Origin: Candidatus Dadabacteria bacterium
GTDB lineage: Bacteria; Desulfobacterota_D; UBA1144; Nemesobacterales; CSP1-2
NCBI GenBank assembly: GCA_963805855.1
Contig: CAWDVW010000007.1
Span: 160,001-224,000 of the forward strand
Length of the DNA: 64,000 bases
Direction of reading: 5' to 3'
Below, one piece after another: positions 1,037 to 19,634 of the stretch. Under the pieces are notes generated by a model that did not search any database, had not been told where the DNA came from, and saw only the letters and a list, made by a program, of their open reading frames with translations. How positions within the stretch are numbered: position 1 is the stretch's first letter; each line of letters begins with the position of its first letter. The position numbers and the translations under genes are program-made.

Positions 1037-4000
1037 TTGAAGGTGTTCAAGCAAATGAGAATCGTTCAAACAGAGAGCGGTGAAAGTTTTGAGGGCGTTG
1101 TTGAAAAAGAGAATATAAACCTAGATGATCAGACCACATATTTTTTACTTCCGGATATACCCGCTATAGTTCAGGCGGAGAACCTTTTTCTTAAAAGAAA
1201 TGGTCTTTGGGGAGATAGACTGCTCACTTTTGGGAAATTGTCATTTATTTCTAACTTGAATTCTACTGAACGTCGCAATGTAATCTCCAGGATGGGAAGG
1301 CTCTTTATCATGGAGGAGATTGTAGATGAGATGAATGCAGGATTCTCTTATTTTAAAGACAAGTTTCTTGTAAAGGGGTTTTCCGAATCTCTGTTAAAAA
1401 TTATCGCGGAGTTAAAGCATGCGAAGATTACTCCGCAGGATTTGGCGGATATTAGCGAAAAGGAGGCTGAAGGCGATCTAAAGGACAAGCTAAAGGACCT
1501 GGCGCTAATTTTTAAGAGTTATCAAGGCGGACTGGAACGGGAAATTTTTATAGATGATATAGACAAACTAAAGCTTCTTTCAGAATCCACTTTGAAGGGC
1601 AGATTGTCGCTTATTCTTCCGGGTGCGAAGAAAATCGTTGTTTTCGGGTTTTATGATTTCACTCCATCTCAGCTAGAGGTTTTAGTAGCCATAGACAAGG
1701 CTGGATTTGATCTAGCTATATATATTCCCTCTCTGGATGAGGTGCCGGAATTCAAATCGGCAGTGACCGGTAAAATCGAGAATTGGTTTGGCAGAATTGA
1801 AATTGAAAGAATGGTTAAGACAAACCGGAACGGATGTGAAACAGAAATTCATTCTTTTCCGTCACTTCGAGATGAGTTGGAATTTTGTGCAACCGAGATT
1901 AAGGGCTTACTTCTCAGTGGAGCATATCGACCCGATGAAATAGGGATAGTATCAAGAACGATGGTAAATAAGGAGAGCCTGTACGCTGGCGAATTAGATA
2001 GACTAGATATTCCCTATTCTATTTCGACTGCAGAGAGATTGGGTGCGTCGGGACTGGGTCAGTTTCTCCTGACGCTTCTTCGTGTGAAATCCTCCGGCTT
2101 TGAGAAAAAACATTTTTTGAACCTGCTCAGAAATCCCTTTTTAGAGGCTTATTTTAAGCATGAACAGATTTATGACTTCGTGTGTCAGATTGATTTCAAA
2201 TCAAGCAGGACAAAAACATTAAGAGGGGTAAAAGCGTGGGATGAGCTGTTAAGAGATTCCTTTGAATATGACAATTTTGGGATTGTGGAAAGAGTTATAG
2301 AGTTAATATCTATAATTGATGGCAAGCTTAATTCCCTAAATGTTGGAGTATTGACAGAGGATGTAGCAAATCTAATGGACGAGCTTCTTGTTTATGAATC
2401 GGTAAGGGAATCTTCCAGTAATACAGATGATCATAATAACTGGGCACGTTTTCATAGTTTTATTAAGGAGCTCCGCTATCTTTCAAAATTTAGATTTAAG
2501 GGCATGAAGGTCGGGGGGTTAAGCGAATTCATAGATCTTTTGCTGGAGCTTTGGATTGAGGAGAAATTTTCACATTCTAGTGCCGAAAGTGCAGAAAGAG
2601 TGCAAATACTGGATGCATTAAAAACAAGAGGGACTACATTTCGGGTGTTATTTGTTTTAGGTGTTGCAGAAAAGAGTTTCCCGTTGCCGTTTATCAGGGA
2701 CCCAATTTTAAAAAATGACGAAAGGGCATATATCAATGATTACATGGGGAGTTGTTCTCTTTATGAGGAGTTCTATCACTATGAATCAGAAGATTTGTTA
2801 TTCAATTTGATCAGATCATCGGCTGAGAAAAAGCTTTATATCTCTTATTCCTACAGTGATGAAAAGGATCGATCGAACCTTCCTTCTTATCTGGTGTATG
2901 GGCTTGAGACGAAACTGGGGACCAAGGCCGAAAAGCATTTCCTCGAAGATCGATTCAAATCGCACAAGAATGTCTATACTAAATCTAATTTAGCTGAACA
3001 TCTTTTTTACCTATATAGCAAGCAGAATTTTGAGCTCCAGAACTACCTTGAATATTTACCTGAAAGCATAAAATACGTTTTGAGAGGCATAAACGCCGAA
3101 ACTAGGAGGCTGGAGATCAATGGTGTTTATTCAGAATTTGAGGGGAAGATTGACAATGCGGAACTGCTTCCTGAATTAAATGAATTTTCCCCGACAAAAC
3201 TGGAAACGTATGGCCAATGTCCATTCAGATTTTTTGCCAGCCATATTCTTAATTTAAAAAAGGCAGATGAAATCGAAGATGATGTCAACGCTTTAGACTT
3301 AGGCCTTTTTTATCATAGGATCTTAAGGGAATTTTTTCTTGCGTTAAGTAAAGAAAATGAGGGCAGGGTCGACGTAAGGGAAAAAAGCTATGAAGAGATT
3401 AGTGAATCTTTAAAGGCGCTTTTAAAAGAGAGGGATTTTAATGAGGAGTTTAGTTGGCTTTCTGAAGGTAAAAGGGCGCTAACTATAAAAAGAATAACCG
3501 AACAGGTTTTGCCTCAATTTATTCGGCATGAACTGATCCGTATAGGAGAATGGAACGAGTTAGGTTTTTTTCCAGCGAGGTTCGAAAAAGGAATAGATTT
3601 CGAAATAGACGATATAAAATTATCAGGGATAGTAGACAGAATTGATGTAGGAAATCGGGGATTGCTTATTATAGACTACAAATTGAGACCGTCATCGGTG
3701 AGAAAATTTTTTGATTTTCGAAACCTCCAGCTTCCACTTTATCTGTATGCATTCAGCAAACTCGGGGAAAAACCGGTTGGAGGCTTTTTCAGATTTCTGG
3801 AAAGGCCGGATAGTGAGATAGGATTTCAAGAGAATGGAAAAAAGAGTGTGGAAGATCAAATATCCTATGCTCAAAGGCAGGTTCGGATTTACGTAAGCCT
3901 GATGAGAAAGGGGTTCTTCCCTCCGGTTATCGACGAAAAGGGGTTGGGCTTTGAGAAAATGGAGGTCGAATTGAGAAAGGACGTTAGGGGTCCATGCGGG

Positions 4001-4246
4001 TGGTGTGAGTACTCAGACCTCTGCAGAGCGCCGGGGGGACCTTCAGGCGATTGTAAACTTGCAATGAATGTGCGGCAAAGTATCTGTATAAATGTTAACA
4101 AGAGTCAAGAATCGGATGCAGGATGCAGGAAACACGATACAAGTTGCAGTCAAACTGCGATAGATATCATGCGTCATGCATCTTGCATCCTGGATCGTGT
4201 ATCGGGTACGCGAATCTCTTTGCTATTTATAATTACACTAAGATGA
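1037..4246 (+). CDS. addB: AddB/RexB-like PD-(D/E)XK nuclease subunit with Fe-S staple; true stop probably at 4056
   Basis: FSPTKLETYGQCPFRFF, GIVDRID...IIDYK nuclease motif and PCGWCEYSDLCR cysteine cluster; directly upstream of an AddA-like helicase; no Walker A; ATG at 1055 is a plausible start. Confidence 0.85.
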   Translation: MKVFKQMRIVQTESGESFEGVVEKENINLDDQTTYFLLPDIPAIVQAENLFLKRNGLWGDRLLTFGKLSFISNLNSTERRNVISRMGRLFIMEEIVDEMNAGFSYFKDKFLVKGFSESLLKIIAELKHAKITPQDLADISEKEAEGDLKDKLKDLALIFKSYQGGLEREIFIDDIDKLKLLSESTLKGRLSLILPGAKKIVVFGFYDFTPSQLEVLVAIDKAGFDLAIYIPSLDEVPEFKSAVTGKIENWFGRIEIERMVKTNRNGCETEIHSFPSLRDELEFCATEIKGLLLSGAYRPDEIGIVSRTMVNKESLYAGELDRLDIPYSISTAERLGASGLGQFLLTLLRVKSSGFEKKHFLNLLRNPFLEAYFKHEQIYDFVCQIDFKSSRTKTLRGVKAWDELLRDSFEYDNFGIVERVIELISIIDGKLNSLNVGVLTEDVANLMDELLVYESVRESSSNTDDHNNWARFHSFIKELRYLSKFRFKGMKVGGLSEFIDLLLELWIEEKFSHSSAESAERVQILDALKTRGTTFRVLFVLGVAEKSFPLPFIRDPILKNDERAYINDYMGSCSLYEEFYHYESEDLLFNLIRSSAEKKLYISYSYSDEKDRSNLPSYLVYGLETKLGTKAEKHFLEDRFKSHKNVYTKSNLAEHLFYLYSKQNFELQNYLEYLPESIKYVLRGINAETRRLEINGVYSEFEGKIDNAELLPELNEFSPTKLETYGQCPFRFFASHILNLKKADEIEDDVNALDLGLFYHRILREFFLALSKENEGRVDVREKSYEEISESLKALLKERDFNEEFSWLSEGKRALTIKRITEQVLPQFIRHELIRIGEWNELGFFPARFEKGIDFEIDDIKLSGIVDRIDVGNRGLLIIDYKLRPSSVRKFFDFRNLQLPLYLYAFSKLGEKPVGGFFRFLERPDSEIGFQENGKKSVEDQISYAQRQVRIYVSLMRKGFFPPVIDEKGLGFEKMEVELRKDVRGPCGWCEYSDLCRAPGGPSGDCKLAMNVRQSICINVNKSQESDAGCRKHDTSCSQTAIDIMRHASCILDRVSGTRISLLFIITLR
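4115..4203. repeat. Inverted pair of imperfect heptamer tandem arrays
   Basis: gatgcag-gatgcag-gaaacac-gatacaa (4115-4142) and atgcatc-ttgcatc-ctggatc-gtgtatc (4176-4203), with inner hairpin ttgcagt/actgcga. Confidence 0.7.
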
Positions 4247-4280
4247 TTATACGTGACTAGAAGACCAAAGGGGAAAAGAG

Positions 4281-7200
4281 ATGAAAAGCAGAATCGAAGA
4301 GTTTATGAATTTGAACGATGAGCAGAGGGTGGCCCTAGACCTTAGCAGGGACATTGTTGTTGAAGCCGGAGCGGGCTCAGGAAAGACCAGAGCCCTTGTT
4401 GCTAGGTACCTTAAAATTCTTGAAGAGGGTAGGGCAAAAGTCGATGGAATTGTTGCTATCACTTTTACGGAAAATGCGGCATCGGAGATGAGGGAGAGAA
4501 TAAGAGACATAATTAATTCATATATTGAAAAATATGGTGAGACCAACAACATAAACGTGGAAGCCATAAAAAGACTTCCAAATGCACCCATAAGTACTAT
4601 TCATGGTTTCGCCGCAAGGATTCTAAAGGAAAATCCATTTGAGTCTCTGCTGCCACCCAGCTTTTCAATCATAGAAGGTATTGAACGGAGGTTGTTCATC
4701 GAAGAGGCTATTGATGAATTTATCATCAAGCTCTGGGAGTCTCGGGATGAACTTGTGTCTTGGGTACTGGCAGAGGAGGGCTATGACCGCAACAGGGTCA
4801 GGGAAAGGCTTTTTTCAATCATTTCTTTGTCTGGTAGGCTCCATATTGATCTTGAGCATCAATGTCAAGTCTTTTCAAAGGATAGAGAAGCTAGTCTTGA
4901 TGGCAGTCGTTTGGTAACTACCTTAATAGAAAGCGTGAAAACTGACTTGCCAGATTCATCCAACGGCTACGTGCAAAGTCGAATAGAATCAGTAAGGACT
5001 AATTCATCTTATCTCTTGAATCGGAAAAGCAACGCTGACAGGTCTACGCTTCTTTCTCATATTAAGAATAAGTTGGATATAAACAAAGGGATCTTAGGAC
5101 TTAAGGGTGCGAGTGGGATTGAAAAGGCAGTTGCCGCTTCCTTATTGGAAATGGTCAACAATATCTTGGATCTATATGATTCCGAATTGACTCGGAATTA
5201 TTTGAAATTGGCTTCACGAACATACTCATTTGTGACTAGTAAAAAAGCAAAGGCTTCTTACCTCGAATATGAGGATTTACTGAAAGTCTGTCGAAAATCA
5301 TTACTTAATAATCATAGCCTCCTGCGCCGCTACCGCCGTAAATTCAAGTTTATTATGGTGGATGAATTTCAGGACACGGATCCTACTCAGTTTGAGATCA
5401 TTAAACTTCTCTCCCAGGATTGCGGTGCCAATACGTTTATTGTAGGAGATCCCAAACAATCGATTTTTAGGTTCAGAGGAGGGGACCTGGGGGTTTTCAC
5501 CAATATAAAGAAAGATGCGGGCAGGATAGATAAATTCTTAAAAAATTACCGGTCTCGCCAATCTCTAATTGAATTCTACAACAGATTCTTCGAGAGGCTC
5601 TTTCATGAGGGCTATGAACATATGGAGGCTACGGTTGAAGCAAATAACGGCGAAAGAGTCATAGAGTTTATATTTAGTTTTGATGCTGACGCCTCGGTCT
5701 GGAGGAAGAAGGAGGCATCCAGTGTAATGAAAAGGATAATACAGTTACACGATCATGGCTATGACTACAAAGATATTTCAGTTCTTTGTCGATCGACAAG
5801 CAATATTTACTTGTTGGAAAATGAACTCCGCAAACACAATGTTCCCTACTACTCGTCCAGCGGCAGTGGATTCTTTGGTCGGCAAGAAATACGCGATGTT
5901 GCTGTCTTCATCAGGTATCTTCTAAACCCCAGCGATACGATTTCTGAGGCTTCTGTGCTGAGATCTCCCTTCCTTGGGGCCTCAGATGGTGAGTTGCTGG
6001 CGTACTATACAAATCGAAAGTCTGTTGAATATGTAAATGAGTATCTTTTGTTCTTATCAGAGCTGAGACAAGAAGCCCTATCTTTCACTCCGTCGGCTAT
6101 GCTGTTGTACATATTGGAAAAAACCTCCTATGCCGCTGCGTTACTGGCTCTCCCGGAAGGCTTAACGAGATATGCAAATATAAAAAAGCTGATGAACATT
6201 TTTGGCAGGTTAGAGGCGCTCGGCCATGGAATAGTTGAAATACTGGAATACATAGATAAGAGCATTTCAGAGGATAGCGAGCCCTTAGCACAGACAGAAC
6301 TGGAGGAGGAAGACTCGGTTAAGATCTTAACAGTTCACAAAGCAAAAGGGTTAGAATTCCCTATCGTGATTCTCATGGATTTGAACCATGGGCCAGGCGG
6401 CGGGAATGAAAGTGTTATTGCAAGGAGAGACAGTGGTTTCCTGGTTCGATATGAGGGCAGCTATTCTCAACTTTGGGAGACTATCAATGAACTTGAGCGC
6501 AGCGATAACCTGGAAGAAGAGAAGCGATCACTCTATGTCGCTAAGACAAGGGCAATGGATCTGCTCATTATTTCATTTGGTGGACAAATTAAAAAAGGCG
6601 GGAAAATTAAAATTAATGAGTCGTCGTTTGCAGGATTGTTCAATACCGTTTTTCAGATAGATTCGAATATAGATGATAAAAGCTTATGTACGCTGGGGTT
6701 GAATATACCGATATGGAAAACTGAGGATTCCCCTCCGTTAGTAGAAGAAAAAAGGATTAGCGGAGATGTTGAATTAGACACTTTCATTGAGAGATTTCCC
6801 GACGTCGATCGTGGTGGATCCTTGTCAGACGATGCAAAGGACGAAAGGATCATACAAAAGCTTGGAGGAAAACCTTCGCATTTGGAGATAGCGACGCTGA
6901 TGCACAGGTTTCTTCAGATATGGGACTTTAGTGGCGAAAGCATAAGAAATACAGCGAGCTATGTTCTAAATGAAAGTTACATTGTTAGCAATTCGGTCAT
7001 GAATAAACTAATTCAATTGGGCGAAGTCTTCTTAAGATCGGAGCTACTCGAACATATACGAAGGGCAGACTCGATTGAAAGGGAGGTTCCTTTTTATTTT
7101 GAAATTGCGGGTAAACCCGAAAGGAGGAAAATTGATCTATTGATAAGACAGAACAATAATATAAGGCTTTTTGATTACAAGTATACCGATCCGAAAAACA

Positions 7201-7334
7201 TCAAACCAAACGATATGGAGAAGTACAGGGGTCAGCTGGATCTCTACGGTAAAGCGATTGAAAAAAGGTTTGGAACGGCGCCAAGAGAGAAGTATCTGGT
7301 GTTTTTGCCAGAGATAGAGCTTATGAGCGTGTGA
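4281..7334 (+). CDS. addA: AddA/RexA-like UvrD helicase-nuclease
   Basis: AGAGSGKT Walker A, ITFTENAA, MVDEFQD, VGDPKQSIFRFRG, TVHKAKGLEF, YVAKTRA and C-terminal IDLL...DYK nuclease motif. Confidence 0.92.
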   Translation: MKSRIEEFMNLNDEQRVALDLSRDIVVEAGAGSGKTRALVARYLKILEEGRAKVDGIVAITFTENAASEMRERIRDIINSYIEKYGETNNINVEAIKRLPNAPISTIHGFAARILKENPFESLLPPSFSIIEGIERRLFIEEAIDEFIIKLWESRDELVSWVLAEEGYDRNRVRERLFSIISLSGRLHIDLEHQCQVFSKDREASLDGSRLVTTLIESVKTDLPDSSNGYVQSRIESVRTNSSYLLNRKSNADRSTLLSHIKNKLDINKGILGLKGASGIEKAVAASLLEMVNNILDLYDSELTRNYLKLASRTYSFVTSKKAKASYLEYEDLLKVCRKSLLNNHSLLRRYRRKFKFIMVDEFQDTDPTQFEIIKLLSQDCGANTFIVGDPKQSIFRFRGGDLGVFTNIKKDAGRIDKFLKNYRSRQSLIEFYNRFFERLFHEGYEHMEATVEANNGERVIEFIFSFDADASVWRKKEASSVMKRIIQLHDHGYDYKDISVLCRSTSNIYLLENELRKHNVPYYSSSGSGFFGRQEIRDVAVFIRYLLNPSDTISEASVLRSPFLGASDGELLAYYTNRKSVEYVNEYLLFLSELRQEALSFTPSAMLLYILEKTSYAAALLALPEGLTRYANIKKLMNIFGRLEALGHGIVEILEYIDKSISEDSEPLAQTELEEEDSVKILTVHKAKGLEFPIVILMDLNHGPGGGNESVIARRDSGFLVRYEGSYSQLWETINELERSDNLEEEKRSLYVAKTRAMDLLIISFGGQIKKGGKIKINESSFAGLFNTVFQIDSNIDDKSLCTLGLNIPIWKTEDSPPLVEEKRISGDVELDTFIERFPDVDRGGSLSDDAKDERIIQKLGGKPSHLEIATLMHRFLQIWDFSGESIRNTASYVLNESYIVSNSVMNKLIQLGEVFLRSELLEHIRRADSIEREVPFYFEIAGKPERRKIDLLIRQNNNIRLFDYKYTDPKNIKPNDMEKYRGQLDLYGKAIEKRFGTAPREKYLVFLPEIELMSV

Positions 7335-8757: not shown

Positions 8758-10095
8758 ATGTCTCTGAAAAAGAATGATCTAGCTACCCTGAACGAGCAGC
8801 TAAAACATCATATGGGAATCATAATGAAATGCACCTTGCCATCGGCTAAATATGGCAAATTGCTTCTAGCGTCTCCACCTGATTCGAGATACCCGTACAT
8901 CTATCCAAGGGATACGAGTTGTGCGGTTCAATTGTTCAGGCGTCTGGCTGGCTCTCACAATGGTTACGACGTAGCTGATCAGTCGTTTGAGATCATCAAG
9001 TCGATGGCAACTTTCATGAAGGATTGCCTATCAACCTATGGGTGCTGGGGCCAGCGTTACAGCATAGAGGGAGATGACAAGAGTATATATAGACAAGAGG
9101 ACAACGTTGCGCACGGAATATCAATCATTTGCAATTATTTGTTGACCGCCAACTACTTAAAAAAAGACATCGAGAATCTGGAAGATTATCTACAATGTGT
9201 GAATAGTGCACTGGATTATAGCATGAAAAATTCGTACACAAAGGAATTAAACCTATTCTATTCAACTACCTCAATTCATGAGTCTTCCATGGAAGAGGGG
9301 TATACCTGCTGGGTTAACTTTTCCTATCTCTATGCCTTTTCGCTGGCCTGTGAAGTGGCCTCACTCTTAGATGAAAAGCACATCATATCGAGGGATCACC
9401 TGAGTTTCAGAAAACAGTTTCTGTATTCTGTCAGTGAACTCTTCATGTCGGGGCACAGATATGTGAGGCGCATAGAACCCCAGGGGAATATGGATATGCG
9501 TCCAGATTTCACTCTCCTGAGTCCATTTTATTATGGTTTTCTGCACTATAAGCCCGAGATGGAAAACAGTATCCAGTACATCGAAAAGCAGCTCTGGGAT
9601 CCGGAACTCGGAATGATCATGAGATACCTGCCCTTCTATAGGGATTTTGCAACTCATATCCATGCGGGGAATGGCCCCTGGACGCAGTACACTGGCATTC
9701 TGGCACAATATCACTATTGGAAGGATGATATCGAGCGGGGAGACGAGTTGCTTGGTATGATTGATAGATTCAAGGATGAGAAAGGGGACATTCCTGAGCA
9801 TCTGTCCACGGTTCAGAGGTATGAAGAGTTTATGGAGAAAGAATGGAAGACCGGGACAGATTTTAATAAGGAATTCTACAAGCCGATTCTGCTTGAGGAT
9901 GTTGACTTCAATAAGATCCTGGAGGAGGCTAACAATATGTCGAGATCATACGAAGAGACAGGTAAAAGGTGCACATTCAGAGACGAATCCAGCAGCGAGG
10001 GTGGTTACATTCAATTCTCGAAACCGCTTATGTGGTCGCACGTGGAGTATGCCCGCGCACTTCTAGTCAGGGCTGGTGATTGGTGGAACTTGTAG
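8758..10095 (+). CDS. Glycoside hydrolase family 15-like protein (glucoamylase/trehalase, six-hairpin)
   Basis: YPYIYPRD, GQRY, QED, GNGPW, IPEH and PLMWSH motifs; GGAGGTG RBS. Confidence 0.8.
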   Translation: MSLKKNDLATLNEQLKHHMGIIMKCTLPSAKYGKLLLASPPDSRYPYIYPRDTSCAVQLFRRLAGSHNGYDVADQSFEIIKSMATFMKDCLSTYGCWGQRYSIEGDDKSIYRQEDNVAHGISIICNYLLTANYLKKDIENLEDYLQCVNSALDYSMKNSYTKELNLFYSTTSIHESSMEEGYTCWVNFSYLYAFSLACEVASLLDEKHIISRDHLSFRKQFLYSVSELFMSGHRYVRRIEPQGNMDMRPDFTLLSPFYYGFLHYKPEMENSIQYIEKQLWDPELGMIMRYLPFYRDFATHIHAGNGPWTQYTGILAQYHYWKDDIERGDELLGMIDRFKDEKGDIPEHLSTVQRYEEFMEKEWKTGTDFNKEFYKPILLEDVDFNKILEEANNMSRSYEETGKRCTFRDESSSEGGYIQFSKPLMWSHVEYARALLVRAGDWWNL

Positions 10096-10611
10096 GGATA
10101 TCAGTAGGATATTAACCACACTTAATGTGACATATTAAGTAATTGATGTCCGGTTGACTTTATTAAATAATCTTATTGTCTTTCAAGATTTAGATTGGTT
10201 TATGTAGATTCGGATGTAAGATCCGACGTGAGGTGAAATTTAGACTAGAGCGGGCTTTTCCTGTTGGATGCAACGTTAATTAGGTATTAAATACAAAGAT
10301 TACTAAGGAGGGATTACAGGATTAACTATCTTTTTGTCATTGGCGGAATCTATCCAGAGCCTGTGTCACTTTGCTTCATGAGTTGCTTTAAAATATTTTG
10401 TACAAATTCTGATTGGTCTCCAAACGAGTTGTTTAAAGAAAATCAATTGGCAAGTGTTAATTCTAGATTTTCGAATTACATAAATATATTTATTTAATGT
10501 GATTAGTTAATAATGCAAGAGGATTGTGCTTCCTCTCTGTTTAAATAATTCAAAATTGTGTAATCTTTAAAAACAAATTTCCTGTAGTTTGCTACAGGCT
10601 GGTTATACACT

Positions 10612-10692
10612 GTCATTGCGAACGAAGTGAAGCAATCCCATTTTTGGGTTTGCTTCATCCCCTTCGAATTAACCCTGGGTTACTCGCAATGA
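10612..10692. repeat. Palindromic repeat element (GTCATTGCGA...TCGCAATGA type)
   Basis: Terminal inverted repeats tcattgcga/tcgcaatga with inner tgaagcaa/ttgcttca stem; degenerate relative near 26722. Confidence 0.65.
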
Positions 10693-10761
10693 AAATTAAT
10701 ATGGGGCTATAATAAGACCACCCTGTCGCTTTATAAAGGGTTGATGATTCGGTGATCATAA

Positions 10762-13700
10762 ATGAGAAAAGTTAAAAATAAGCAAAACCGGATAGAAAGT
10801 GAGCCAAATTCAACCAAGCGTATAAGCAGTAAGCCCTCTGAAAATTATTCAACGTCATCTAAAACTTTGATTAAGGGGAAGAGGAAAGTGAAAGATTCCA
10901 CAAATAAATTGATTGATATCGAAAAACGCCTTCGAAAACAGAATGAGGTCCTTGTGAAAATCGCTAAGAGCAGATTCATGGAGAAGGGGGATTTGACGAA
11001 TGCCCTGAGGGAAATAATAGAAGCATCTGCTAAGACGCTGGGAGTGGATAGAGTTAACGTATGGCTTTACAATTACGATCGCTCGAAGATATATTGCATT
11101 GACCATTATGAAATGAGTTCAAACCAACACTCAAAGGGACTTGAATTAGCTTCCGCGGATTATCCATCGTACTTTGAAGCATTGGAAAAAGAAAGAATCA
11201 TAGCTGCTCACGACGCACATACCGATCCCAAGACGAAAGAGTTTTCACAAACATATTTGCTACCAAACCGGATTGGTTCGCTCTTAGACGCTCCAGTATG
11301 GAAAGGCGGGAAAATGATTGGTCTGGTTTGTCACGAGCATGTAGGACCAGCGCGGACATGGACAAACGAGGATCAAGCCTTTGCGGCATCTATTGCTGAT
11401 TTTATATCGCTGGCTTTTGAATCTAGGGACCGCAAGCAAATAGAGGCGGAACTGGAGGAGTCCCATTCGCTTTTAATTGCGACCCTCGAATCTACCGCGG
11501 ACGGGATTCTAGTGGTTGATAGAGAAGGGAAAATAATAAGATTCAATAGAAAATTCGTCGATATGTGGAATATCCCTGATTCCATCATTGAGTCGAAAGA
11601 TGACAACAGGGCATTAGAATTCGTCTTGAAACAGCTAAAAGAACCGGAACGGTTTGTTTCAAAGGTAAAGGAATTATATGATCAACCGGAATCCGAAAGT
11701 TATGATCTGTTGGAGTTTAAGGATCGAAGGTACTTCGAGCGCTATTCTAAGCCACAGGTGATTGGCAATAATATACTCGGGAGGGTTTGGAGCTTTCGGG
11801 ATGTTACGAATCAAAAACGAGCGGAACAAGCTCTTCGTGAAAGCGAAGAGCGTTATCGTACGCTTGTTGAACATACCTATGATCTAATTAGCGAGGCTGG
11901 TATCGACGGACGCTTTTTGTATCTGAGCGCTAATCATAAAGAGATTCTTGGTTACGAACCAGAGGAGCTCGAGGGCAAAAATATTTTCGAAAATATTCAT
12001 CCAGATGATAGTGAAACCGTAAAGCGGGAATTTCAGAGAATAATGGAAACATTCTCCTCTGGTCATGTGGAATTCAGAATCAAACACAAAAACGGGCAGT
12101 GGAGATGGATTGAAAGCTCTGGCAAACCATTGAAGACTGCCAATGGAGAAGTCCGAGCTGTGATTGCCTCACGTGACATAACTGAGAAAAAGATTGCTGA
12201 AGAAGCACTCAAAGAGAGTCTTTCGCTGCTATCAAGAAAAAACCGATATGAGACTATTATAGGTTCTGTTACCCGGAGCGTTCACCAATCCATTGATTTT
12301 CAAGAAGTGCTAGAAAATGCAGTCGAATCCATGAGTAAAAACATAGCTGGAGCCGAAAATGTGGGGATCTGGCTTGTCGAGGGAAATGATGCCGGTTTGA
12401 AAGCCTATAGAGGGTTCCCCGATTGGTTTGTAGAGCGTTTAAGTAAAATTCCATACCCCAAAGGGGTAACCTGGAAGACTATCACGAATGACAAGCCATT
12501 ATATTCTGCGAATACAGAAAAAGATAAGGTGATGGGGCCCGCCGGGATTGAATTGGGTACAAAGAGTTATCTGTCCATGCCTATACACTTTGGGGGTAAA
12601 ACCGTAGGTGCGATAAACATAAATTCACTAAAGGAGAGTGCCTTTGACAAAGAAGAGTTAAATCTGCTTGCGATCATTTCACAGCAGATAGAAGTCGCGA
12701 TTAACAATGCTAAACAGGCTGAAGCATTGCTTGAATCGGACAGGGCGCTTAGGGAAAGCCTTGATCAATTATCTAAAAAGAACAGGTATGAGACTATAAT
12801 AAGCACCGTGACCAGGAGTGTTCACCAGTCAACGAATCTCGAGGACGTTATGGATAACGCCGTACAATCAATCAGCGAAAATATAGGTGGGGCAGACAGT
12901 GTAGCAATTTACATAGTGGAAGGTGAGGAGGCTGTGTTAAAAGCTCAACGGGGTTACAGTGATTGGTATATGCAGAGGGTTGGAAGAATTCCGTATCCAA
13001 AGGGATATGCCTGGAAGGTTATCATGGACGAGCGTTATAGATATTGTGCGGATGTGGATCAAGATACGGTTATTGGTCCCGCCGGTAGGGAGTTCGGCAT
13101 AAAGAGCTATTTATCCATGCCTATTCTATACGAAGGTAAGACGATCGGAGTGATAAATGTAAATTCGCTCCAGAAAGATGCCTTTGATGAGGATGAGTTG
13201 AAACTCCTGGAAATAGTGAGGGAGCAAATCACGGTAGCATTAAATAATGCCAGACAAAAAGGAGCGCTGGAAGAGGCGCTTTCAGAGGTCGAAAGATTAA
13301 AAGATCGGCTGGTGGACGAAAGTGAAAATATACATGGTGGTTTTGAAAGCAGCCACATTTTTAAAGATGTGAAAGGCAAAAGCATGTCACTTCAAAGGTC
13401 TCTTTTTAAGGTTTACCAATATGCATCATCTGATTCAGTACTATTGATTCAAGGTGAAGTTGGTACTGGAAAGGAACTGATAGCTAGATCTGTTCATGAG
13501 ATTAGCCCGAGGAGGCAGAGACCGTTTATTAGCGTAAACTGTGAAGAATTGTCTAAAGAAGCAATTGAGCTGGAGCTATTCGGACACGAGGCAAGGGGTT
13601 CGGCTACGGGCGCGCTCTCCATTAGGATTGGTCGATTTGAAATGGCAAATAATGGAACTATCTATCTGGAGGAGATTGGCGCAATACCACTGGAATTACA

Positions 13701-14118
13701 GTACAGCTTAGCTAGGATCTTTCAGGAAGGGGTTTTTAGTAGATCTTCAAATAACCGTCTGATTAAGGTTAATGTAAGGGTTATAGCTTCATCAAAAACC
13801 GATGTGGGTGAGCTCTTCCAGGAGGGCAAACTCGGTGAAGAGCTATACAATCAAATAAATAGTTTTCAGGTCACCATTCCGCCCCTCCGTGATCGCAAAG
13901 AGGATATTCCACTGCTTTCGAAACATTTCATTGATAAACATGGATATAAGCTGGAGAAAAAAATAGATTCAATACCCCATGAAGTTGTCGAATATCTCCA
14001 AGCCCATGATTGGCCTGGAAACGTCAGTGAACTGGACAGATTACTAGAGCAGGCAATATATCGTTCGAAGGGAACAACCCTGGAATTGCATGATTTGGCT
14101 GACCTTATTGTGAAATAA
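10762..14118 (+). CDS. GAF-PAS-PAS-GAF-GAF sensor with degenerate sigma54-activator-type AAA+ domain and no HTH
   Basis: N-terminal GAF (SLLDAPV...GLVCHEH), two PAS domains, two duplicated GAFs, GEVGTGKE Walker A, VNC, ELFGHE, IPPLRDRKEDI, WPGNV; ends shortly after the AAA+ lid. Confidence 0.88.
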   Translation: MRKVKNKQNRIESEPNSTKRISSKPSENYSTSSKTLIKGKRKVKDSTNKLIDIEKRLRKQNEVLVKIAKSRFMEKGDLTNALREIIEASAKTLGVDRVNVWLYNYDRSKIYCIDHYEMSSNQHSKGLELASADYPSYFEALEKERIIAAHDAHTDPKTKEFSQTYLLPNRIGSLLDAPVWKGGKMIGLVCHEHVGPARTWTNEDQAFAASIADFISLAFESRDRKQIEAELEESHSLLIATLESTADGILVVDREGKIIRFNRKFVDMWNIPDSIIESKDDNRALEFVLKQLKEPERFVSKVKELYDQPESESYDLLEFKDRRYFERYSKPQVIGNNILGRVWSFRDVTNQKRAEQALRESEERYRTLVEHTYDLISEAGIDGRFLYLSANHKEILGYEPEELEGKNIFENIHPDDSETVKREFQRIMETFSSGHVEFRIKHKNGQWRWIESSGKPLKTANGEVRAVIASRDITEKKIAEEALKESLSLLSRKNRYETIIGSVTRSVHQSIDFQEVLENAVESMSKNIAGAENVGIWLVEGNDAGLKAYRGFPDWFVERLSKIPYPKGVTWKTITNDKPLYSANTEKDKVMGPAGIELGTKSYLSMPIHFGGKTVGAININSLKESAFDKEELNLLAIISQQIEVAINNAKQAEALLESDRALRESLDQLSKKNRYETIISTVTRSVHQSTNLEDVMDNAVQSISENIGGADSVAIYIVEGEEAVLKAQRGYSDWYMQRVGRIPYPKGYAWKVIMDERYRYCADVDQDTVIGPAGREFGIKSYLSMPILYEGKTIGVINVNSLQKDAFDEDELKLLEIVREQITVALNNARQKGALEEALSEVERLKDRLVDESENIHGGFESSHIFKDVKGKSMSLQRSLFKVYQYASSDSVLLIQGEVGTGKELIARSVHEISPRRQRPFISVNCEELSKEAIELELFGHEARGSATGALSIRIGRFEMANNGTIYLEEIGAIPLELQYSLARIFQEGVFSRSSNNRLIKVNVRVIASSKTDVGELFQEGKLGEELYNQINSFQVTIPPLRDRKEDIPLLSKHFIDKHGYKLEKKIDSIPHEVVEYLQAHDWPGNVSELDRLLEQAIYRSKGTTLELHDLADLIVK

Positions 14119-14141
14119 GACACATAGAGAGAACGGGACAA

Positions 14142-16988
14142 ATGAAGAGAAGTAAGGATAGTTTTAATCGGTCTTTGCTTGACGCTTTTGATAATTTTGC
14201 ATCGCGCAACTGCTTCAAGGTAAAAAGGGGCTTCGGGTATCGAGATTATAATTATATGCAAATTCAAGGGTTCGTTTTTCGAATTGCGCTATTTTTACAA
14301 TCTCTCCGACTCGGCAAGGGCGAGAGGATTGCGATTGTTGCTGAAAATTCCCCTGAGTGGCTGGCGGTATTTATTGCTACTATGTTTTCAGGTTGCGTCG
14401 CCGTACCTCTATCGACAAGCCTCCGCTCGGACATGTTTAGATTAATACTAAAAGACTCAGGAGCCAGGGTTGCCGTAATTCAAGATCAACGATATTACAA
14501 TGAAATTCGCAACCATGAAGGGGAACTGCCTGATTTGAAAACAATCATTCTTGTTAACGAGTCGGTTGAATCCATGTCCGAGGTTATCTTGCTTAATTCA
14601 ATTCTAGAACAGTCGATCGCTCATAAAGATACGGCCGAAATTCGTACATTGGCAGAAGGAATTGACCCAAATGATTTCGCCCTAATTTTGTATACCGCAA
14701 AGGAAACCGATAAGCCAATGGGGGCGGCATTTAACCATTTCCAGATGTATACATCATTAGAGAATATGTCAAAATGGTTAAATTTTGAAGAGGATGATAT
14801 GGGCTTTACACTTCTCAACTGGGGAAACCCCATAAGTCTAAAGGTATCACTTGATTACTTTCTATCTGGTGTCAACAATTCTTTGGCCGAGAGTATTGAC
14901 ACCGTGTTTGAGAATCTCCAGGAAACGAGTCCTACCTTTGTCCTGACAATTCCATTTGCACTCGAGAATATATACAACAAGGTCATAACTGAGTTTAGTA
15001 AGTTTCACGGTTCGCGTCAAAGCATTTTTCTCTGGGCTTTAGCCACTAGTAAGGAGTATCATTCTGCAGGTCTGACGGCATCAAATGAATTACGTGAACG
15101 TTACAGGCGTGCTGACATGACATTTTTTAGTCAGATCAGGGGGATGTTAGGGGGTAGACTTCGTCGGATTTATTTGGCGGGTGCAAGTATATCTGAAGAG
15201 TTGGTAGATTTCGCAGAGGCTATAGGATTGAAGGCCTTCAATTTATATCATGTCACCGAGTCTGGCGGATTTCCCGCTCTTTGTGCTTCTGATGCAAACC
15301 GTCCCGGAACCTGTGGACAGGTGGCACCTGGTTTCCAAATTCGTATTGCCGATGATAGCGAGGTTCTGGTCCGGGGTGAAACTGTAATGAAACAGTACTG
15401 GAAGAAGCCCGAAGAAACCTCTCAAACGATCGATTCTGATGGTTGGTTACATACAGGGGACCTAGGACGCTTCGATTCCGATGGTTTTCTATATTTAACT
15501 GGATATAAACAGTCAGTGATTAAGTTGTCAAAAGGGCTAAAGATAATGCCAGATACGGTTGAAAAGGTATTAACCTCAAATCCGTACATTTATCAGGCTG
15601 TGGTATTAGGAGAAGGGAGACCCTATGTCTCGGCCCTCATCGTGCCAAATTATGAAGCACTTGCGGCGCACCTGCGTGAACATGCAGAAGGAGAGGTTGG
15701 AACGCTTAACATGTATCACCCTGAAGTCCATTCCCTCTTAGACAAAGTGGTTGCCGAAATTAATAGCAAATTAGACCCTTGGGAGCGAATAGAGGCTTAT
15801 ACACTTCTAGATCAGCCCTTTTCCGGGGAGAAGGGTGAGCTAACACAGTCCATGAAGGTCAACCGTAATGTAATTGCAGAACGCTATTCTGTCCATACAG
15901 AGGCGATGTATCCGATGACAATTAGATTGGAAGAGAGTGCGGTAACTCAGGTGGAACTAGAGCCTGAGCATCTTCGTGAATTGTTAGAGAAGCAAGACAT
16001 TCTTGACGCATGGATAAAGGACGCCGGTATTGGCTTCTTGTTCGACCTTGCAAGGGCGAAGCAAATCGACATCACCTCAATGGTCCATATTTGTGATACT
16101 GTTTCAGCAATTGCACAGATGCAGAGCGAAGAAAAGCCACTGTCCACTGCATTAATAGTCGGGGATCCTTCCAGAGTTTCACATGTCTTACCGGAAAGCG
16201 AGATTCAACTTCAAAGGTATGATCATATTCGCCGGATGCGTCAGGTAGTGATTACGCTTGCTAAGGTGGTAGACGGCGTGTTGTTTGCCTACGGTGTGGA
16301 TAAACTTGGTTACGTGAGGAAGATACATAAGCTAGATAGAGAACTGGATCACCCTGCCAGTTTTCTTCTTGGACCACAGTTCAGTCATCACGCAGCCATC
16401 TCTGAAAAATGTGATGCGGTTGTGTTCTTTGTGCCTAAAGGCGGTAGACAGGTACGAGTATTTGCAAATGGCCAACTCGTAGGTCGATACACAGATGGAA
16501 ACTGGTATTCGGAGAGTACACCGTATTTGGAGGAATCTGTCGCTAGACTGGCTGAACAAAAACAGATCGATTTGAAATTGTTAACAAGGATACTACGCTG
16601 TGCATTCCAGATGTCGGAGGAGAATTTAGGTGCAATTATAGTCCTGGGAGACTCGGAGGTAATTTTAAAACGCTCCGACCCCCCGGGGATAGCCGCCTTT
16701 GCAAACCTCCTCAGCACTCCTATAGAAAAGATATCCGATCGCGAATTGATCAACTTTGCCAAGCAGGACGGAGCAACAATTATAGATACAAATCAGGGTC
16801 TATTCAGGGCATGTATGGTTCTACTTAGACCTGAAGCCAATACCAAGGCTGATGTTGGAATCGGTAAAGGTGCTCGTCACAGCAGTGCTGCTAAGATGAG
16901 CGCTGAAGCAAATTGCTTGGCGATCACGGTTTCACAGGATGGTCCTATTACTTTGTACGACGCCGGAAAGAGGATATTATCTTTATAG
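14142..16988 (+). CDS. Long-chain acyl-CoA synthetase-like (AMP-binding) domain fused to tandem diadenylate-cyclase (DisA_N/DAC) folds
   Basis: ENSPEW, EVLVRGETVMKQYW, DGWLHTGDLG, GEGRPYVSALIVP, ELTQSMKVNR in the N-terminal part; KQDGATIID, GARHSSAAKMS, AITVSQDGPITLY in the C-terminal part. Confidence 0.85.
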   Translation: MKRSKDSFNRSLLDAFDNFASRNCFKVKRGFGYRDYNYMQIQGFVFRIALFLQSLRLGKGERIAIVAENSPEWLAVFIATMFSGCVAVPLSTSLRSDMFRLILKDSGARVAVIQDQRYYNEIRNHEGELPDLKTIILVNESVESMSEVILLNSILEQSIAHKDTAEIRTLAEGIDPNDFALILYTAKETDKPMGAAFNHFQMYTSLENMSKWLNFEEDDMGFTLLNWGNPISLKVSLDYFLSGVNNSLAESIDTVFENLQETSPTFVLTIPFALENIYNKVITEFSKFHGSRQSIFLWALATSKEYHSAGLTASNELRERYRRADMTFFSQIRGMLGGRLRRIYLAGASISEELVDFAEAIGLKAFNLYHVTESGGFPALCASDANRPGTCGQVAPGFQIRIADDSEVLVRGETVMKQYWKKPEETSQTIDSDGWLHTGDLGRFDSDGFLYLTGYKQSVIKLSKGLKIMPDTVEKVLTSNPYIYQAVVLGEGRPYVSALIVPNYEALAAHLREHAEGEVGTLNMYHPEVHSLLDKVVAEINSKLDPWERIEAYTLLDQPFSGEKGELTQSMKVNRNVIAERYSVHTEAMYPMTIRLEESAVTQVELEPEHLRELLEKQDILDAWIKDAGIGFLFDLARAKQIDITSMVHICDTVSAIAQMQSEEKPLSTALIVGDPSRVSHVLPESEIQLQRYDHIRRMRQVVITLAKVVDGVLFAYGVDKLGYVRKIHKLDRELDHPASFLLGPQFSHHAAISEKCDAVVFFVPKGGRQVRVFANGQLVGRYTDGNWYSESTPYLEESVARLAEQKQIDLKLLTRILRCAFQMSEENLGAIIVLGDSEVILKRSDPPGIAAFANLLSTPIEKISDRELINFAKQDGATIIDTNQGLFRACMVLLRPEANTKADVGIGKGARHSSAAKMSAEANCLAITVSQDGPITLYDAGKRILSL

Positions 16989-17254
16989 ATGCGGTGCCGT
17001 TCGGAACTTTTCACGAGAAAACAGAGAATCTTTTGTATAAGGGTTAAGCGGACTATTGTCTAAGTCGCTAATGGCCTTTAGCTCGCCCAAGGGCTTCCAA
17101 TGTAATTTTGCACGGAACCCTACTTTCCTGTGCATCGTTAACGGAAAGACTTCTTGTTTAGGGACTGACATACCGCGGGAGGGTTATTTATTGTTTTTTT
17201 TAACCGATTATGTATAAACATACAGACTAAACTGTAAAAAAGTGTAAATACCTT

Positions 17255-19634
17255 TTGCTATCTGTAATAACTAAATATACAAAATGGCTCCATACCCGCT
17301 GGCCGGCGGGCGTTGTAGAAAAACTACCCCTTGTTAATGAGGATTATTCAACTAATATTCCTGGACTGTACGTTGTCGGTGATTTAACGGGAATCCCTCT
17401 TCTTAAGTTTTCTTCCGATAGTGGGGCCAAGGTTGTCAAGAATATTCTAGCAGGTGAGGATTTTAAACGACAGAAATCCGAAGAGAAAACGAAGGGGCTA
17501 GTGGATTTAGTAATCGTTGGAGCAGGGGTGTCGGGAATGGCATCGGCGTTAGAGGCAAGGAAAGCAGGATTGAGCTTTGAGATCCTTGAAGCAACCGAGC
17601 CCTTCTCGACTATAGTAAATTTCCCTAAGGGTAAACCTATTTATACCTACCCTAGAGATATGACCCCAGCCGGTGATCTCCAATTTTCCGCTACTGTAAA
17701 GGAACCTCTGGTAGATGAGCTTAAAGAACAGACACTTCGAAGGGGTATAGAGCCTCGAATTGCAAGGGTTGAAAGAGTCATACGAAGGGATGATTTTTTT
17801 GAGGTTGTTATACCTGACGGAGAAAACCTGCTTGCTAAAAGGGTAATCATTGGGATTGGGCGTTCGGGAAATTTCAGGAAGCTCGGTGTTCCGGGAGAGG
17901 ATCTGGATAAGGTTTTTAATCGTCTGCATGATCCAAAGGATTTTTGTGGCCAAAATGTGTTGGTGGTGGGAGGCGGCGATACTGCCTTAGAGACAGCAAT
18001 CGCATTAGCGCAGTGCGGTGGCTATGTATCGTTGTCTTACAGGAAGGATGAATTCTCAAGGCCCAAACCAGAAAACATAGAACGGCTTAACAAATTGATT
18101 TCAAATCCCATGGCTGCTGTTGGGGTCGAGACCCCAACGTCAGAGCGCGTAACGACGAGTACGGGTGCTTTTATCCCTTCGGATCATGCACCAGGAAAAA
18201 TCAAATTGCTGTTGAAGACTAAGGTAAAGAGCGTCACCGAAAATGAAGTGTCACTTGTAGATGCTGATGGAAAGGGAGTATCTATTCCAAATCAAGCGGT
18301 ATTTACAATGATAGGTCGTGAGGCTCCACTGGATTTTATTCGTCGCAGCGGCATTAAGATCAAAGGTGAGATTGGCGCAAAAGGTTGGGTTGGCTTAACT
18401 CTCTTTTTGCTTTTTGTCACGTTTGTCTACCATTGGAAATCGGGGGGCTATTTATCAAGGTTTTTTGAAACACATAATTGGTTTCCTTACAATGTGCCAG
18501 ATTTTATTTATGGCTTGGGTGCATTTGTCGCTGATAAGGCTGCCGATCCTTCTACCCTATTAGGTACTTTGACGATAAACCTTGAAGAACCCGGCTTTTA
18601 TTATAGTTTAATGTACACGTCACTCATTATTATTTTTGGTATACTCAGAATCAAGCGACGAAAAACCCCTTACGTGACGGTACAGACTGTGTCTCTAACG
18701 TTTTTCCAGGTACTTCCTCTATTTTTATTACCATACATAATTTTGCCGTACATGGGCCACAATGGATTGTTCGACTCTGGGGTATTGAAATCTGTGGCCG
18801 ACTCCCTCTTTCCCGAAGTCAACTATGAGCACGGACGAGAATATTGGAGGGCATTCGGTTTTATACTTGCCTGGCCACTATTCATCTGGAATGTCTTTAG
18901 CTATCAGCCCATGTGGGGTTGGTTGATCATTAGTCTGGTCCAGACTTTTGTAATCATCCCCCTATTGATTTATTTTTGGGGTAAGGGCGCATATTGTGGT
19001 TGGATCTGTTCCTGTGGAGCTATGGCAGAGACCTTGGGTGACACACAAAGGCAGAAGATGCCACACGGTGCATTTTGGAATAGGTTGAACATGGTTGGAC
19101 AGGTAATATTGGCGGTGGCCTTTCTCATCTTAATATTTCGAATTGTCAGCTGGATATTGCCCGATACCTCAATTGGGAATCTCTTTAATCGAATCTATGA
19201 GGGGCTTCTTTATAATTGGAGTTTTTTCGGGATCCAGATTAATTACAAGTGGTTTGTTGATCTTTTCCTGGCTGGAATAATAGGGTATGGGGTGTATTTC
19301 TGGTTTAGTGGACGTGTATGGTGTAGGTTTGCCTGCCCACTGGCGGCTTTGATGCACATCTACGCGAGATTTAGCCGGTTTCGTATCCTTTCTGATAAGA
19401 AGAAAGTGTATTTCGTGTAATGTCTGCACATCGGTTTGCCATCAGGGAATAGATGTAATGAACTTTGCGAACAAAGGTATTCCAATGGAAGATCCGGAGT
19501 GCGTTAGGTGCAGTGCGTGCGTGCAATCTTGCCCGACGGGTGTTCTACAATTTGGCCAGGTAAATAGAAGAACCGGCGAGGTAATTAAGATAGACAGCCT
19601 CGGCGCGTCTCCTGTGCTGATGCGCGAGCAGTGA
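17255..19634 (+). CDS. TrxB-like FAD/NAD(P) oxidoreductase fused to a NapH/RdxA-type membrane polyferredoxin; one-base frameshift at ~19404
   Basis: VGAGVSG and VGGGDTA Rossmann motifs, several TM helices, YCGWICSCG, WCRFACP; the shifted frame continues CISCNVCTSVC and CVRCSACVQSCP to TGA at 19634. Confidence 0.85.

Follow-up and report, generated by a model that had tools for sequence, protein, structure and literature searches.

Diadenylate cyclase (DAC) domains, which synthesize cyclic di-AMP (c-di-AMP), are governed by fused or adjacent partners, as in CdaA with CdaR and GlmM, DisA, CdaS, and DacZ. DisA is a soluble multi-domain cyclase that is controlled by its partner RadA. Beyond a few partners of CdaA and DisA, the switching of c-di-AMP synthesis by signals is poorly understood. 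Among the enzymes of cyclic di-GMP (c-di-GMP), degenerate GGDEF domains are found beside active EAL or GGDEF domains. The sigma54 activators include proteins that depart from the common plan. FlgR from Helicobacter pylori and CtcC from Chlamydia possess the activator AAA+ domain with no helix-turn-helix (HTH) at the C terminus, keep the GAFTGA and ATPase motifs, and activate sigma54. The AAA+ domains of TyrR, HupR, HsfA, PhhR, NtrX, and VpsR have no GAFTGA motif and some have no Walker B residues; these atypical enhancer-binding proteins (EBPs) are characterised as transcription regulators bound at promoters, which implies that they retain DNA binding, with a C-terminal HTH in VpsR (PMC6158489). 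Here we describe a locus that combines elements of both groups. It lies in a 64,000-nucleotide stretch of a Candidatus Dadabacteria bacterium (assembly GCA_963805855.1, contig CAWDVW010000007.1, positions 160,001 to 224,000), which is called the window. A gene coding for a PAS/GAF protein with a degenerate sigma54-activator-type AAA+ domain (gene 1) is followed by a gene coding for a putative diadenylate cyclase (gene 2). We lean, though only slightly, towards the view that they constitute a lineage-specific module of two proteins, whose PAS/GAF sensor would control c-di-AMP synthesis by way of a hydrolysis-dead AAA+ domain.

Architecture of the two predicted proteins

Both open reading frames (ORFs) are intact, gene 1 coding for 1118 amino acids (aa) and gene 2 for 948 aa. 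The features of gene 1 and of the spacer that follows it, where the terminator scan located no terminator-like site, are:

10762 to 14118, forward strand: gene 1, for a cytoplasmic protein with several sensor domains, a degenerate AAA+ domain of the sigma54-activator type, and no HTH (ORF, translation, Pfam, orthologues)
10990 to 11415, forward strand: GAF domain 1, aa 77-218 (best stretch of PF01590, 77-218)
11482 to 11829, forward strand: PAS domain 1, aa 241-356 (PF12860 at 242-356, PF13188 at 241-282)
11848 to 12192, forward strand: PAS domain 2, aa 363-477 (PF00989 at 363-468, PF08448 at 370-477)
12235 to 12741, forward strand: GAF domain 2, about aa 492-660 (Pfam; boundaries approximate, from tblastn segments 492-676)
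12832 to 13248, forward strand: GAF domain 3, aa 691-829 (PF13185 at 691-827, PF13492 at 693-829)
13375 to 13872, forward strand: degenerate AAA+ core of the bacterial enhancer-binding protein (bEBP) type, aa 872-1037 (PF00158)
13888 to 14106, forward strand: AAA+ lid, aa 1043-1115 (PF25601)
14119 to 14141, forward strand: intergenic spacer of 23 nt, in which a purine-rich stretch precedes the ATG (sequence)

The Pfam domain order of gene 1 is GAF-PAS-PAS-GAF-GAF followed by the sigma54-activator AAA+ domain and its lid. The match to PF00158 (Sigma54_activat) reached 153.6 bits with a cut-off of 20.2, and in a genome-wide search gene 1 was the lowest of 11 strong matches (158 bits), the other ten being canonical activators with 218 to 253 bits. 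The 15 Pfam families with matches at E≤0.01 include no HTH, and the protein ends three residues past the lid. The NCBIfam models for NifA, FhlA, NorR, and NtrC matched only up to the AAA+ part and far below their cut-offs. The AAA+ motifs were read from an alignment with the ten canonical activators of the same genome. Walker A is retained (GEVGTGKE). The GAFTGA loop is represented by EARGSATGA, which has a one-residue insertion and no Phe, whereas the canonical paralogues have KGAFTGA or near variants. Walker B has EE (YLEEIG, compared with the canonical FLDEIG), both arginine fingers are missing (LGEELYNQI, compared with FRxDLYYRL), and the sensor II Arg is replaced by Ser (GNVSEL, compared with GNVREL). 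Set beside the bEBPs, gene 1 therefore has the AAA+ match and lacks GAFTGA, the canonical Walker B and arginine fingers, and the C-terminal HTH; set beside the atypical EBPs of the TyrR/VpsR/NtrX type, it has the degenerate GAFTGA and lacks the DNA-binding domain.

In all eight orthologues aligned (gene 1 and seven others) the loop has the insertion, neither arginine finger remains, an HTH is absent, and Walker A is preserved. The Walker B residues vary among them, being DE in G007, EE in G006 and in the window's own genome (G000), and RN, KD, or KN in the remaining ones. The modified L1 loop has its own conserved pattern, A-L/I-S-L/I-x-I/V-G, in all of them. Features held in common by orthologues argue that gene 1 is a maintained protein and not a decaying pseudogene. 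As judged from its motifs, the AAA+ domain may bind ATP and should not hydrolyse it, contact sigma54, or bind DNA. The product of a convergent neighbouring gene, a 1062-aa GAF-AAA+ protein (L027), was considered as the missing half of gene 1 and discarded; it is an ordinary activator with GAFTGA, DE, and both arginine fingers.

The features of gene 2 are:

14142 to 16988, forward strand: gene 2, ANL, linker, DAC', and DAC, putative diadenylate cyclase, 948 aa (ORF, Pfam, homologues)
14232 to 15401, forward strand: ANL large subdomain, aa 31-420, with the P-loop YTAKETDKPMG at aa 184-194 (PF00501, motif table)
15513 to 15911, forward strand: ANL C-terminal subdomain, aa 458-590 (PF23562, AMP-binding_C_3)
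15963 to 16058, forward strand: helical linker, aa 608-639 (helices H9-29 and H32-40 of the model; junction of the natural fusions at about aa 632)
16059 to 16523, forward strand: DAC', a degenerate DAC fold, aa 640-794 (Pfam DAC E 0.13, hhalign E 0.011, fold search)
16536 to 16985, forward strand: catalytic-type DAC, aa 799-948, with QDGATII, GKGARHSSA, and VSQDG (PF02457, fold, invariant motifs)

The ANL (acyl-CoA-synthetase-like) fold is recognised by PF00501 (135.1 bits, cut-off 29.9) and PF23562 (43.6 bits, cut-off 20.8). The best NCBIfam model was FadD11, with 205.8 bits and a cut-off of 950, and no named ligase was above its cut-off among the 25 NCBIfam models listed. The P-loop YTAKETDKPMG departs at four positions from the PROSITE PS00455 pattern. 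Motif counts across the family were obtained from a MAFFT alignment of 112 full-length members. The A3 P-loop is variable in the family and non-canonical in all 20 homologues inspected, and the A10 Lys, present in gene 2 as K572, is found in only 43 of the 112 members. The nucleotide-pocket motifs A5 (Y, E, GG) and A7 (GD) are retained in 105 to 112 of them. Loss of the canonical P-loop together with retention of the nucleotide pocket suggests that the ANL part is most likely a ligand-binding regulator and not an enzyme. Identity to the query, taken per 50-residue block over the same 112 members, is 62-80% in the C-terminal third, the best-conserved part, where DAC' and DAC are located, compared with 32-67% in the ANL part.

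A structural model of residues 600-948 (54 sequences; pLDDT 82.8, pTM 0.79) has a helical stretch and, after it, two alpha/beta domains whose secondary-structure elements are arranged in the same order. When residues 640-800 were folded alone (pLDDT 80.6) and compared with 48,161 representative chains, only six had Z≥5, all of them DAC (Z 9.1-11.5), and the next best had 3.8. Foldseek agreed with the assignment. At the sequence level the signal is weak (Pfam DAC, E 0.13 over the whole profile; hhalign, E 0.011 with 113 columns in register), and BLASTP of DAC' against DAC gave nothing (E 15), so that the relationship between both domains is visible by profile and fold only. A sequence search of the PDB with residues 600-948 returned a single chance-level match. 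In DAC', VDG replaces DGA, PQFSHHAA replaces GxRHRxA, and no SEE-type acidic motif is present; the domain retains VDG and FRHHAAIS as motifs of its own across the family.

The terminal domain matched PF02457 at aa 822-943 (60.6 bits, cut-off 27), and its fold (residues 799-948) superposed on those of DisA, CdaA, CdaM, and DacM with Z 13-17 and root mean square deviations (rmsd) of 2.6-3.3 Å over 123-142 residues. QDGAT is present in 112 of the 112 full-length members and the residues of G-A-R-H-S-S-A in 109 to 112; D-G, G-x-R-H, and S-x-D are retained in every one. The second DAC motif of the family is G-A-R-H-S, in which G, R, and H are invariant and the third residue of the usual RHR is Ser. 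This third residue also varies (R, A, M) across the three other DACs of the genome, and a 2026 preprint reports D, G, G, and R as the sole universally conserved DAC residues; on these grounds RHS in place of RHR should not by itself be read as the sign of a dead enzyme. The terminal DAC appears to be the sole domain of either protein with an intact catalytic signature. Pfam identified no CdaA_N, DisA linker or HhH, or CdaS N-terminal helices in gene 2. With respect to the pyruvate-kinase-C-like domain of the DacZ/CdaZ type, the region that precedes the DAC domain folds as a DAC, matches no pyruvate kinase chain at Z≥5, and has a weak DAC hit as its only Pfam match.

Much of this had been anticipated in an original prediction that a model made from the letters and their ORFs. 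The two intact, co-oriented genes separated by 23 nt were confirmed by the ORF coordinates, and the five GAF/PAS domains and altered AAA+ domain without HTH were upheld by Pfam and by the alignment with the ten activators. Its altered P-loop in gene 2 was found again as YTAKETDKPMG, non-canonical in all homologues inspected, and its plural "DAC folds" proved apt, given that residues 640-800 match only DAC chains at Z≥5. That catalytic motifs are confined to the terminal DAC agrees with the family counts (DGA in 112 of 112, G-x-R-H-S-S-A in 109 to 112). The idea that the losses are selective and not the product of pseudogene decay is borne out by orthologues that, at 51-92% identity, keep both frames open.

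Pairing, fusions and genomic context

The window's genome consists of 3.1 Mb in nine contigs and is 94% complete; the closest public relatives of the window are metagenome-assembled genomes (MAGs) labelled Thermodesulfobacteriota, Dadabacteria, or Deltaproteobacteria. The 120 searchable species genomes of its phylum are all within one order, and 14 of them have a match to gene 2 (10 full-length, 2 fragments, 2 fusions). An orthologue of gene 1 is located 18-58 nt upstream, on the same strand, in nine of the ten full-length carriers: G000, G006, G007, G072, G077, G091, G095, G096, and G090, the last one partly seen at a contig edge. These nine carriers represent two families of one order. Identity among them is 51-91% for gene 2 and 51-92% for gene 1, with both frames open. 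The genes that flank the pair differ among G000, G007, and the second family, which indicates that the pair itself is the conserved unit. In the second family, gene 2 is invariably followed by genes for a DUF2092 periplasmic protein and for a protein of 410-428 aa that has no Pfam family (L009:9094-9930, reverse strand, with equivalents in L010, L013, L015, and L024); gene 2 is not followed by them in G000 or G007.

The two fusions belong to two species of two genera (G003 and G013). They are 785-787 aa long and consist, by Pfam, of PAS-GAF-PAS followed by DAC. Residues from about 23 to 470 are collinear with gene 1 orthologues from about 4 to about 483 (46-64% identity), the first PAS being 64-67% identical to PAS 1 of gene 1 and the last, which ends at the junction, 69-73% identical to PAS 2. 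Residues 470-787 are collinear with residues 632-948 of gene 2 (64-80% identity). The junction, which is clean, coincides with a domain boundary, where the end of the last PAS runs into the linker that precedes DAC'. Since both fusions share this junction, they are to be counted as one event and not as two. The simplest origin would be an in-frame deletion in an ancestral gene 1-gene 2 operon that removed the GAF-AAA+ part and the ANL part together. Maintenance of the fusion in two genera argues that sensor-to-cyclase is the working logic of the system, with the AAA+ and ANL domains as a dispensable bridge or as extra inputs. One fusion contig, L028 (JBLNAE010000259.1), is publicly labelled Ignavibacteriales and is also among the contigs of G013, which belongs to the window's own family; either this label or the binning of G013 looks doubtful.

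The original prediction had called for a search for AMP-binding plus DisA_N fusions and for an inspection of their upstream neighbours. The search, carried out with residues 600-948 of gene 2 and with clusters at 90% identity in the near-length class, did recover such a family; with at least 304 clusters, mostly from Chloroflexota, it also showed that gene 2 is not peculiar to this locus. Of the 120 matches listed, every one has PF02457 and PF23562, and PF00501 is present in each except two shorter proteins of 532 and 534 aa; most of these matches are 930-1000 aa long. The sources name them only "AMP-binding protein", "long-chain acyl-CoA synthetase", or "diadenylate cyclase", and the labels of their MAGs are Anaerolineae, Caldilineaceae, Chloroflexota, Thermodesulfobacteriota, and Dadabacteria. 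A search for shorter proteins yielded many fragments at contig ends and complete DAC'-DAC proteins with a length of 342-350 aa, an identity of 47-52%, and a coverage of 99-100%. The stand-alone proteins P0165, P0167, P0168, P0175, P0177, and P0183, in contigs of up to 10.4 Mb, are named "DisA nucleotide-binding domain protein" by the sources, and P0168, P0175, and P0183 are labelled Chloroflexi or Ardenticatenaceae. DAC'-DAC thus appears to behave as a portable output module that can be found alone, behind ANL, or behind PAS-GAF-PAS.

In 26 public loci, a gene 1 homologue was immediately upstream of the gene 2 homologue only in those of the window's own phylum. Outside the phylum, the gene 2 homologue is adjoined by Ser/Thr kinases in four loci and by histidine kinases (hybrid) in three; other neighbours are pentapeptide-repeat proteins and tandem gene 2 paralogues. 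The occurrence of the family without gene 1 and next to kinases in those genomes argues that gene 1 is a lineage-specific addition and not the defining partner of the gene 2 family. In three Chloroflexota-labelled loci, a protein of about 1190 aa with the architecture Pkinase-AAA_16-TPR_MalT-GerE is encoded 12-113 nt downstream of the gene 2 homologue (L016:3972-7550, L023:10848-14420, L026:5626-9183). This adjacency looks like a second, different conserved partnership of the cyclase family. A Ser/Thr kinase of 640-680 aa is often encoded upstream (L014:551-2602, L023:5986-7902, L026:104-2062). Two full-length ANL-DAC'-DAC paralogues, about 50% identical to the query, stand in tandem in L008:131-6023 (labelled Anaerolineae) and in L018:7986-13851 and L020:3-3756 (both labelled Caldilineaceae).

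Three further DAC genes were identified in the window's genome; four in total are many for a 3.1-Mb genome:

G000:C7:460165-463518 (L001): CdaA_N-DAC protein, 277 aa, motif RHR, followed by a YbbR/CdaR gene
G000:C6 (L002): second CdaA_N-DAC protein, 400 aa, motif RHA
G000:C7:510177-513551 (L003): DAC-only protein, 201 aa, motif RHM

The gene pair is preceded by an unusually long, AT-rich intergenic region of 666 nt (10096-10761), which includes a hairpin with a 7-bp stem at 10581-10598. Rfam at E≤1 matched no family across 9800-17400, so no c-di-AMP riboswitch is present there. The sigma54 promoter pattern TGGCAC-N5-TTGCW, with up to two mismatches, gave 21 matches, compared with 21.8 expected, and none upstream of gene 1; the counts of the sigma70 and terminator scans were within about 1-1.5 standard deviations of the shuffled expectation. 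The only Sigma54_DBD match of the genome, rpoN (a 502-aa frame), is located at about 55304-55780 of the window, on the reverse strand and about 38 kb downstream of the pair. Just upstream of the long intergenic region, a 445-aa ORF without a Pfam family at E≤0.001 (8758-10095, forward strand) has a counterpart of 448 aa in the equivalent position of the close relative L005 and was not seen in the more distant loci. Farther upstream (1037-7334, forward strand) there is a gene pair coding for AddB-like (PDDEXK_1, ADDB_N) and AddA-like (UvrD helicase and nuclease) proteins. The stretch is contained in DNA runs of metagenomes from salt marsh, mangrove, marsh, and soil, and the run that covers it best may be the source sample.

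Possible mechanism and competing explanations

The proposal of a sensor-cyclase module is built on the architecture, motif states, conservation, adjacency, and fusions described above. In such a module, gene 2 would make c-di-AMP upon an encounter between the live DAC domains of two chains, and DAC' together with the N-terminal domain (ANL, PAS-GAF-PAS, or none) would set this encounter by way of the helical linker. The PAS and GAF domains of gene 1 would sense small molecules or redox state, and gene 1 would bind gene 2 and add a second input in trans. Its hydrolysis-dead AAA+ domain, which probably still binds ATP and oligomerises, would serve as an ATP-dependent oligomerisation or docking module. 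Gene 1 could then switch c-di-AMP synthesis, for example by controlling how DAC domains of different chains meet. The proposal supposes that both genes are co-transcribed, that their products are in contact, that the signal travels from gene 1 to gene 2, and that the product is c-di-AMP.

Several findings weigh against this proposal. Most of the gene 2 family exists without gene 1, and a gene-1-type AAA+ protein was encoded upstream in none of the 11 loci from outside the phylum (mostly labelled Chloroflexota) that include upstream sequence. Within the phylum, the carrier G011, which is 99% complete, gave only AAA+-only matches to the gene 1 query. A CdaA-CdaR operon and two further DAC genes are present in the genome, which would make the cyclase encoded by gene 2 an accessory one. 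The terminal DAC has RHS where RHR is expected and SQD where SEE is expected, and in G000 a Ser occupies the DAC' position that is Arg in nearly all members of the family. The fusions show that AAA+ and ANL are dispensable and are silent on their role; any such deletion must remove both, and therefore the fusion is no proof that AAA+ touches ANL. Co-folding covered residues 458-948 of gene 2 (ANL C-terminal subdomain to DAC) and residues 690-1118 of gene 1 (last GAF domain to lid); its scores of 0.24 and 0.23, with a mark of 0.32, speak neither for nor against contact. In the salt-marsh metatranscriptome X20, three 151-nt contigs lie in gene 1 and one in gene 2 at a depth of 2-3, where DNA carry-over is possible, and no RNA read or contig from it bridges 14118-14142. 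The expected conservation of the pair holds inside the phylum (nine of ten full-length carriers, and fusions in two species) and fails outside of it (0 of 11 loci). The original reading of both genes as one signalling unit keeps its footing in the conserved degenerate domains, the in-phylum pairing, and the fusions, without gene 1 being the defining partner of the gene 2 family; the fatty-acid or adenylate signals that it proposed as inputs are conjectural.

A more ambitious version, which we regard as rather unlikely, would have the AAA+ ring, stripped of sigma54 contact, ATP hydrolysis, and DNA binding, as a ligand-gated scaffold that brings ANL-DAC'-DAC cyclases together or keeps them apart and writes PAS/GAF signals directly into c-di-AMP and not into transcription, with DAC' as a pseudo-partner that masks the live DAC. 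The masking would end upon a signal received via ANL, gene 1, or a fused PAS. If this were true, DAC'-DAC would represent a type of output module, both general and portable, without a described precedent for c-di-AMP.

The same locus could be explained in other ways. Gene 1 could be the receiver, its GAF or degenerate AAA+ domain binding the cyclic dinucleotide made by gene 2, with feedback on the cyclase or an effect on another target. GAF domains are classical binders of cyclic nucleotides. The activator-type AAA+ proteins FleQ, FlrA, and VpsR are cyclic-dinucleotide (c-di-GMP) receptors according to PMC6158489, and the conserved operon is as compatible with a synthase and its receptor as with a sensor and its synthase. 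However, gene 1 has no recognisable output, either HTH or enzyme, and would have nothing to control but gene 2; moreover, the PAS-GAF-PAS of the fusions is N-terminal to the cyclase, the usual position of an input. The residues IFKD, located by eye at the presumed position of the FleQ LFRS motif, also speak against a receiver, and we consider this arrangement unlikely. The product of gene 2 could also be something other than c-di-AMP, such as a linear or mixed dinucleotide or a compound derived from an acyl-adenylate, or the protein could sense ATP or AMP without catalysis. RHS for RHR and SQD for SEE in 112 of 112 members amount to a family-specific active site, the ANL part keeps the adenine/ribose motifs A5 and A7, and the tandem DAC'-DAC in one chain could fill the surface to which a second active DAC would normally be paired. 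Yet the four residues (D, G, G, R) reported as universal in the preprint are present and invariant in the family, the DAC fold is close to those of DisA and CdaA (Z 13-17), and the third RHR residue already varies in the other DACs of the genome. A different product is thus distinctly unlikely.

Two further explanations do away with contact between the proteins. Gene 1 could be a decoy subunit that poisons the rings of canonical GAF-AAA+ activators in response to PAS/GAF signals, its adjacency to gene 2 reflecting co-regulation. The genome has rpoN and ten canonical activators, Walker A is kept in all gene 1 orthologues aligned, and the AAA+ domain is 40-41% identical to the canonical paralogues L032 (824 aa) and L033 (699 aa), which match the GAF-AAA+ part of gene 1, compared with 34-39% to some orthologues. 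A decoy is nevertheless quite improbable: gene 1 stays next to gene 2 across two families amid changing surroundings, two species have its sensor half fused to the cyclase, and the modified L1 loop, whose sequence is conserved in its own right, resembles a new contact surface more than it does decay. Finally, the genes could be neighbours without a functional link, syntenic in a few related genomes. The nine genomes are indeed kin, from only two families of one order, gene 2 homologues elsewhere adjoin many kinds of signalling genes, and G011 carries gene 2 without gene 1. But the spacing of 18-58 nt on the same strand holds in nine of nine, the pair is conserved and its flanking genes are not, and the fusion event kept exactly a sensor and a cyclase, all of which makes mere synteny very improbable.

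A sensor-cyclase module is of interest for reasons that reach beyond this locus. The cyclase family is large and unstudied, and its regulatory logic can be read from the architecture, in which interchangeable N-terminal sensors precede DAC'-DAC. The existence of forms in which the sensor is separate, fused, or absent constitutes a natural experiment that points to the parts that carry the signal. Should the pairing be functional, it would link sigma54 activators and cyclic dinucleotides.

Comparison with described systems

The literature searched, which lacked most subscription papers and supplements, contains no description of ANL-DAC or tandem DAC'-DAC proteins; the gene 2 architecture may already be part of a 2023 J Bacteriol survey that sorts DACs into 22 families. 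Within the reach of that literature, and if the proposal is correct, gene 1 would be the first activator-type AAA+ protein kept under selection without a transcription-related feature. As in FlgR and CtcC, there is no HTH in gene 1, but it also lacks GAFTGA and intact ATPase motifs. With the atypical EBPs, as described in PMC6158489, it shares the losses of GAFTGA and Walker B, yet gene 1 and its seven orthologues have no DNA-binding domain and lack both arginine fingers.

Gene 2 resembles the ANL long-chain acyl-CoA synthetases of the FadD11 type in its matches to PF00501 and PF23562 over aa 31-590 and in the conserved A5 and A7. It differs from them in that its ANL part is far below the cut-off, A3 is non-canonical, the A10 Lys is not conserved in the family, and the whole is fused to a cyclase. 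DAC', a dead copy that is strongly conserved beside a live DAC, is reminiscent of the degenerate GGDEF tandems, although fold and messenger differ. The best structural matches of the terminal DAC are DisA from M. tuberculosis (9y4s, Z 16.9, rmsd 2.6 Å over 131 residues) and from T. maritima (Z 15.3). Unlike in DisA, the DAC of gene 2 is C-terminal and not N-terminal, there is no DisA linker or HhH, and there is no sign of DNA scanning. In the system formed by CdaA (DacA), CdaR, and GlmM, a DAC cyclase is likewise set by a protein of the same operon, and the DAC of gene 2 superposes on CdaA with Z 13-15.5. In contrast to CdaA, gene 2 has no CdaA_N membrane domain, has RHS and not RHR, and has a degenerate DAC fold and an ANL part ahead of its DAC; its proposed partner is a cytoplasmic PAS/GAF/pseudo-AAA+ protein and not YbbR or GlmM. 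What sets this locus apart from the known DAC systems is therefore the tandem DAC'-DAC, an ANL pseudo-enzyme as the putative fused regulator, and, as a candidate partner, an activator-type AAA+ protein without transcription features.

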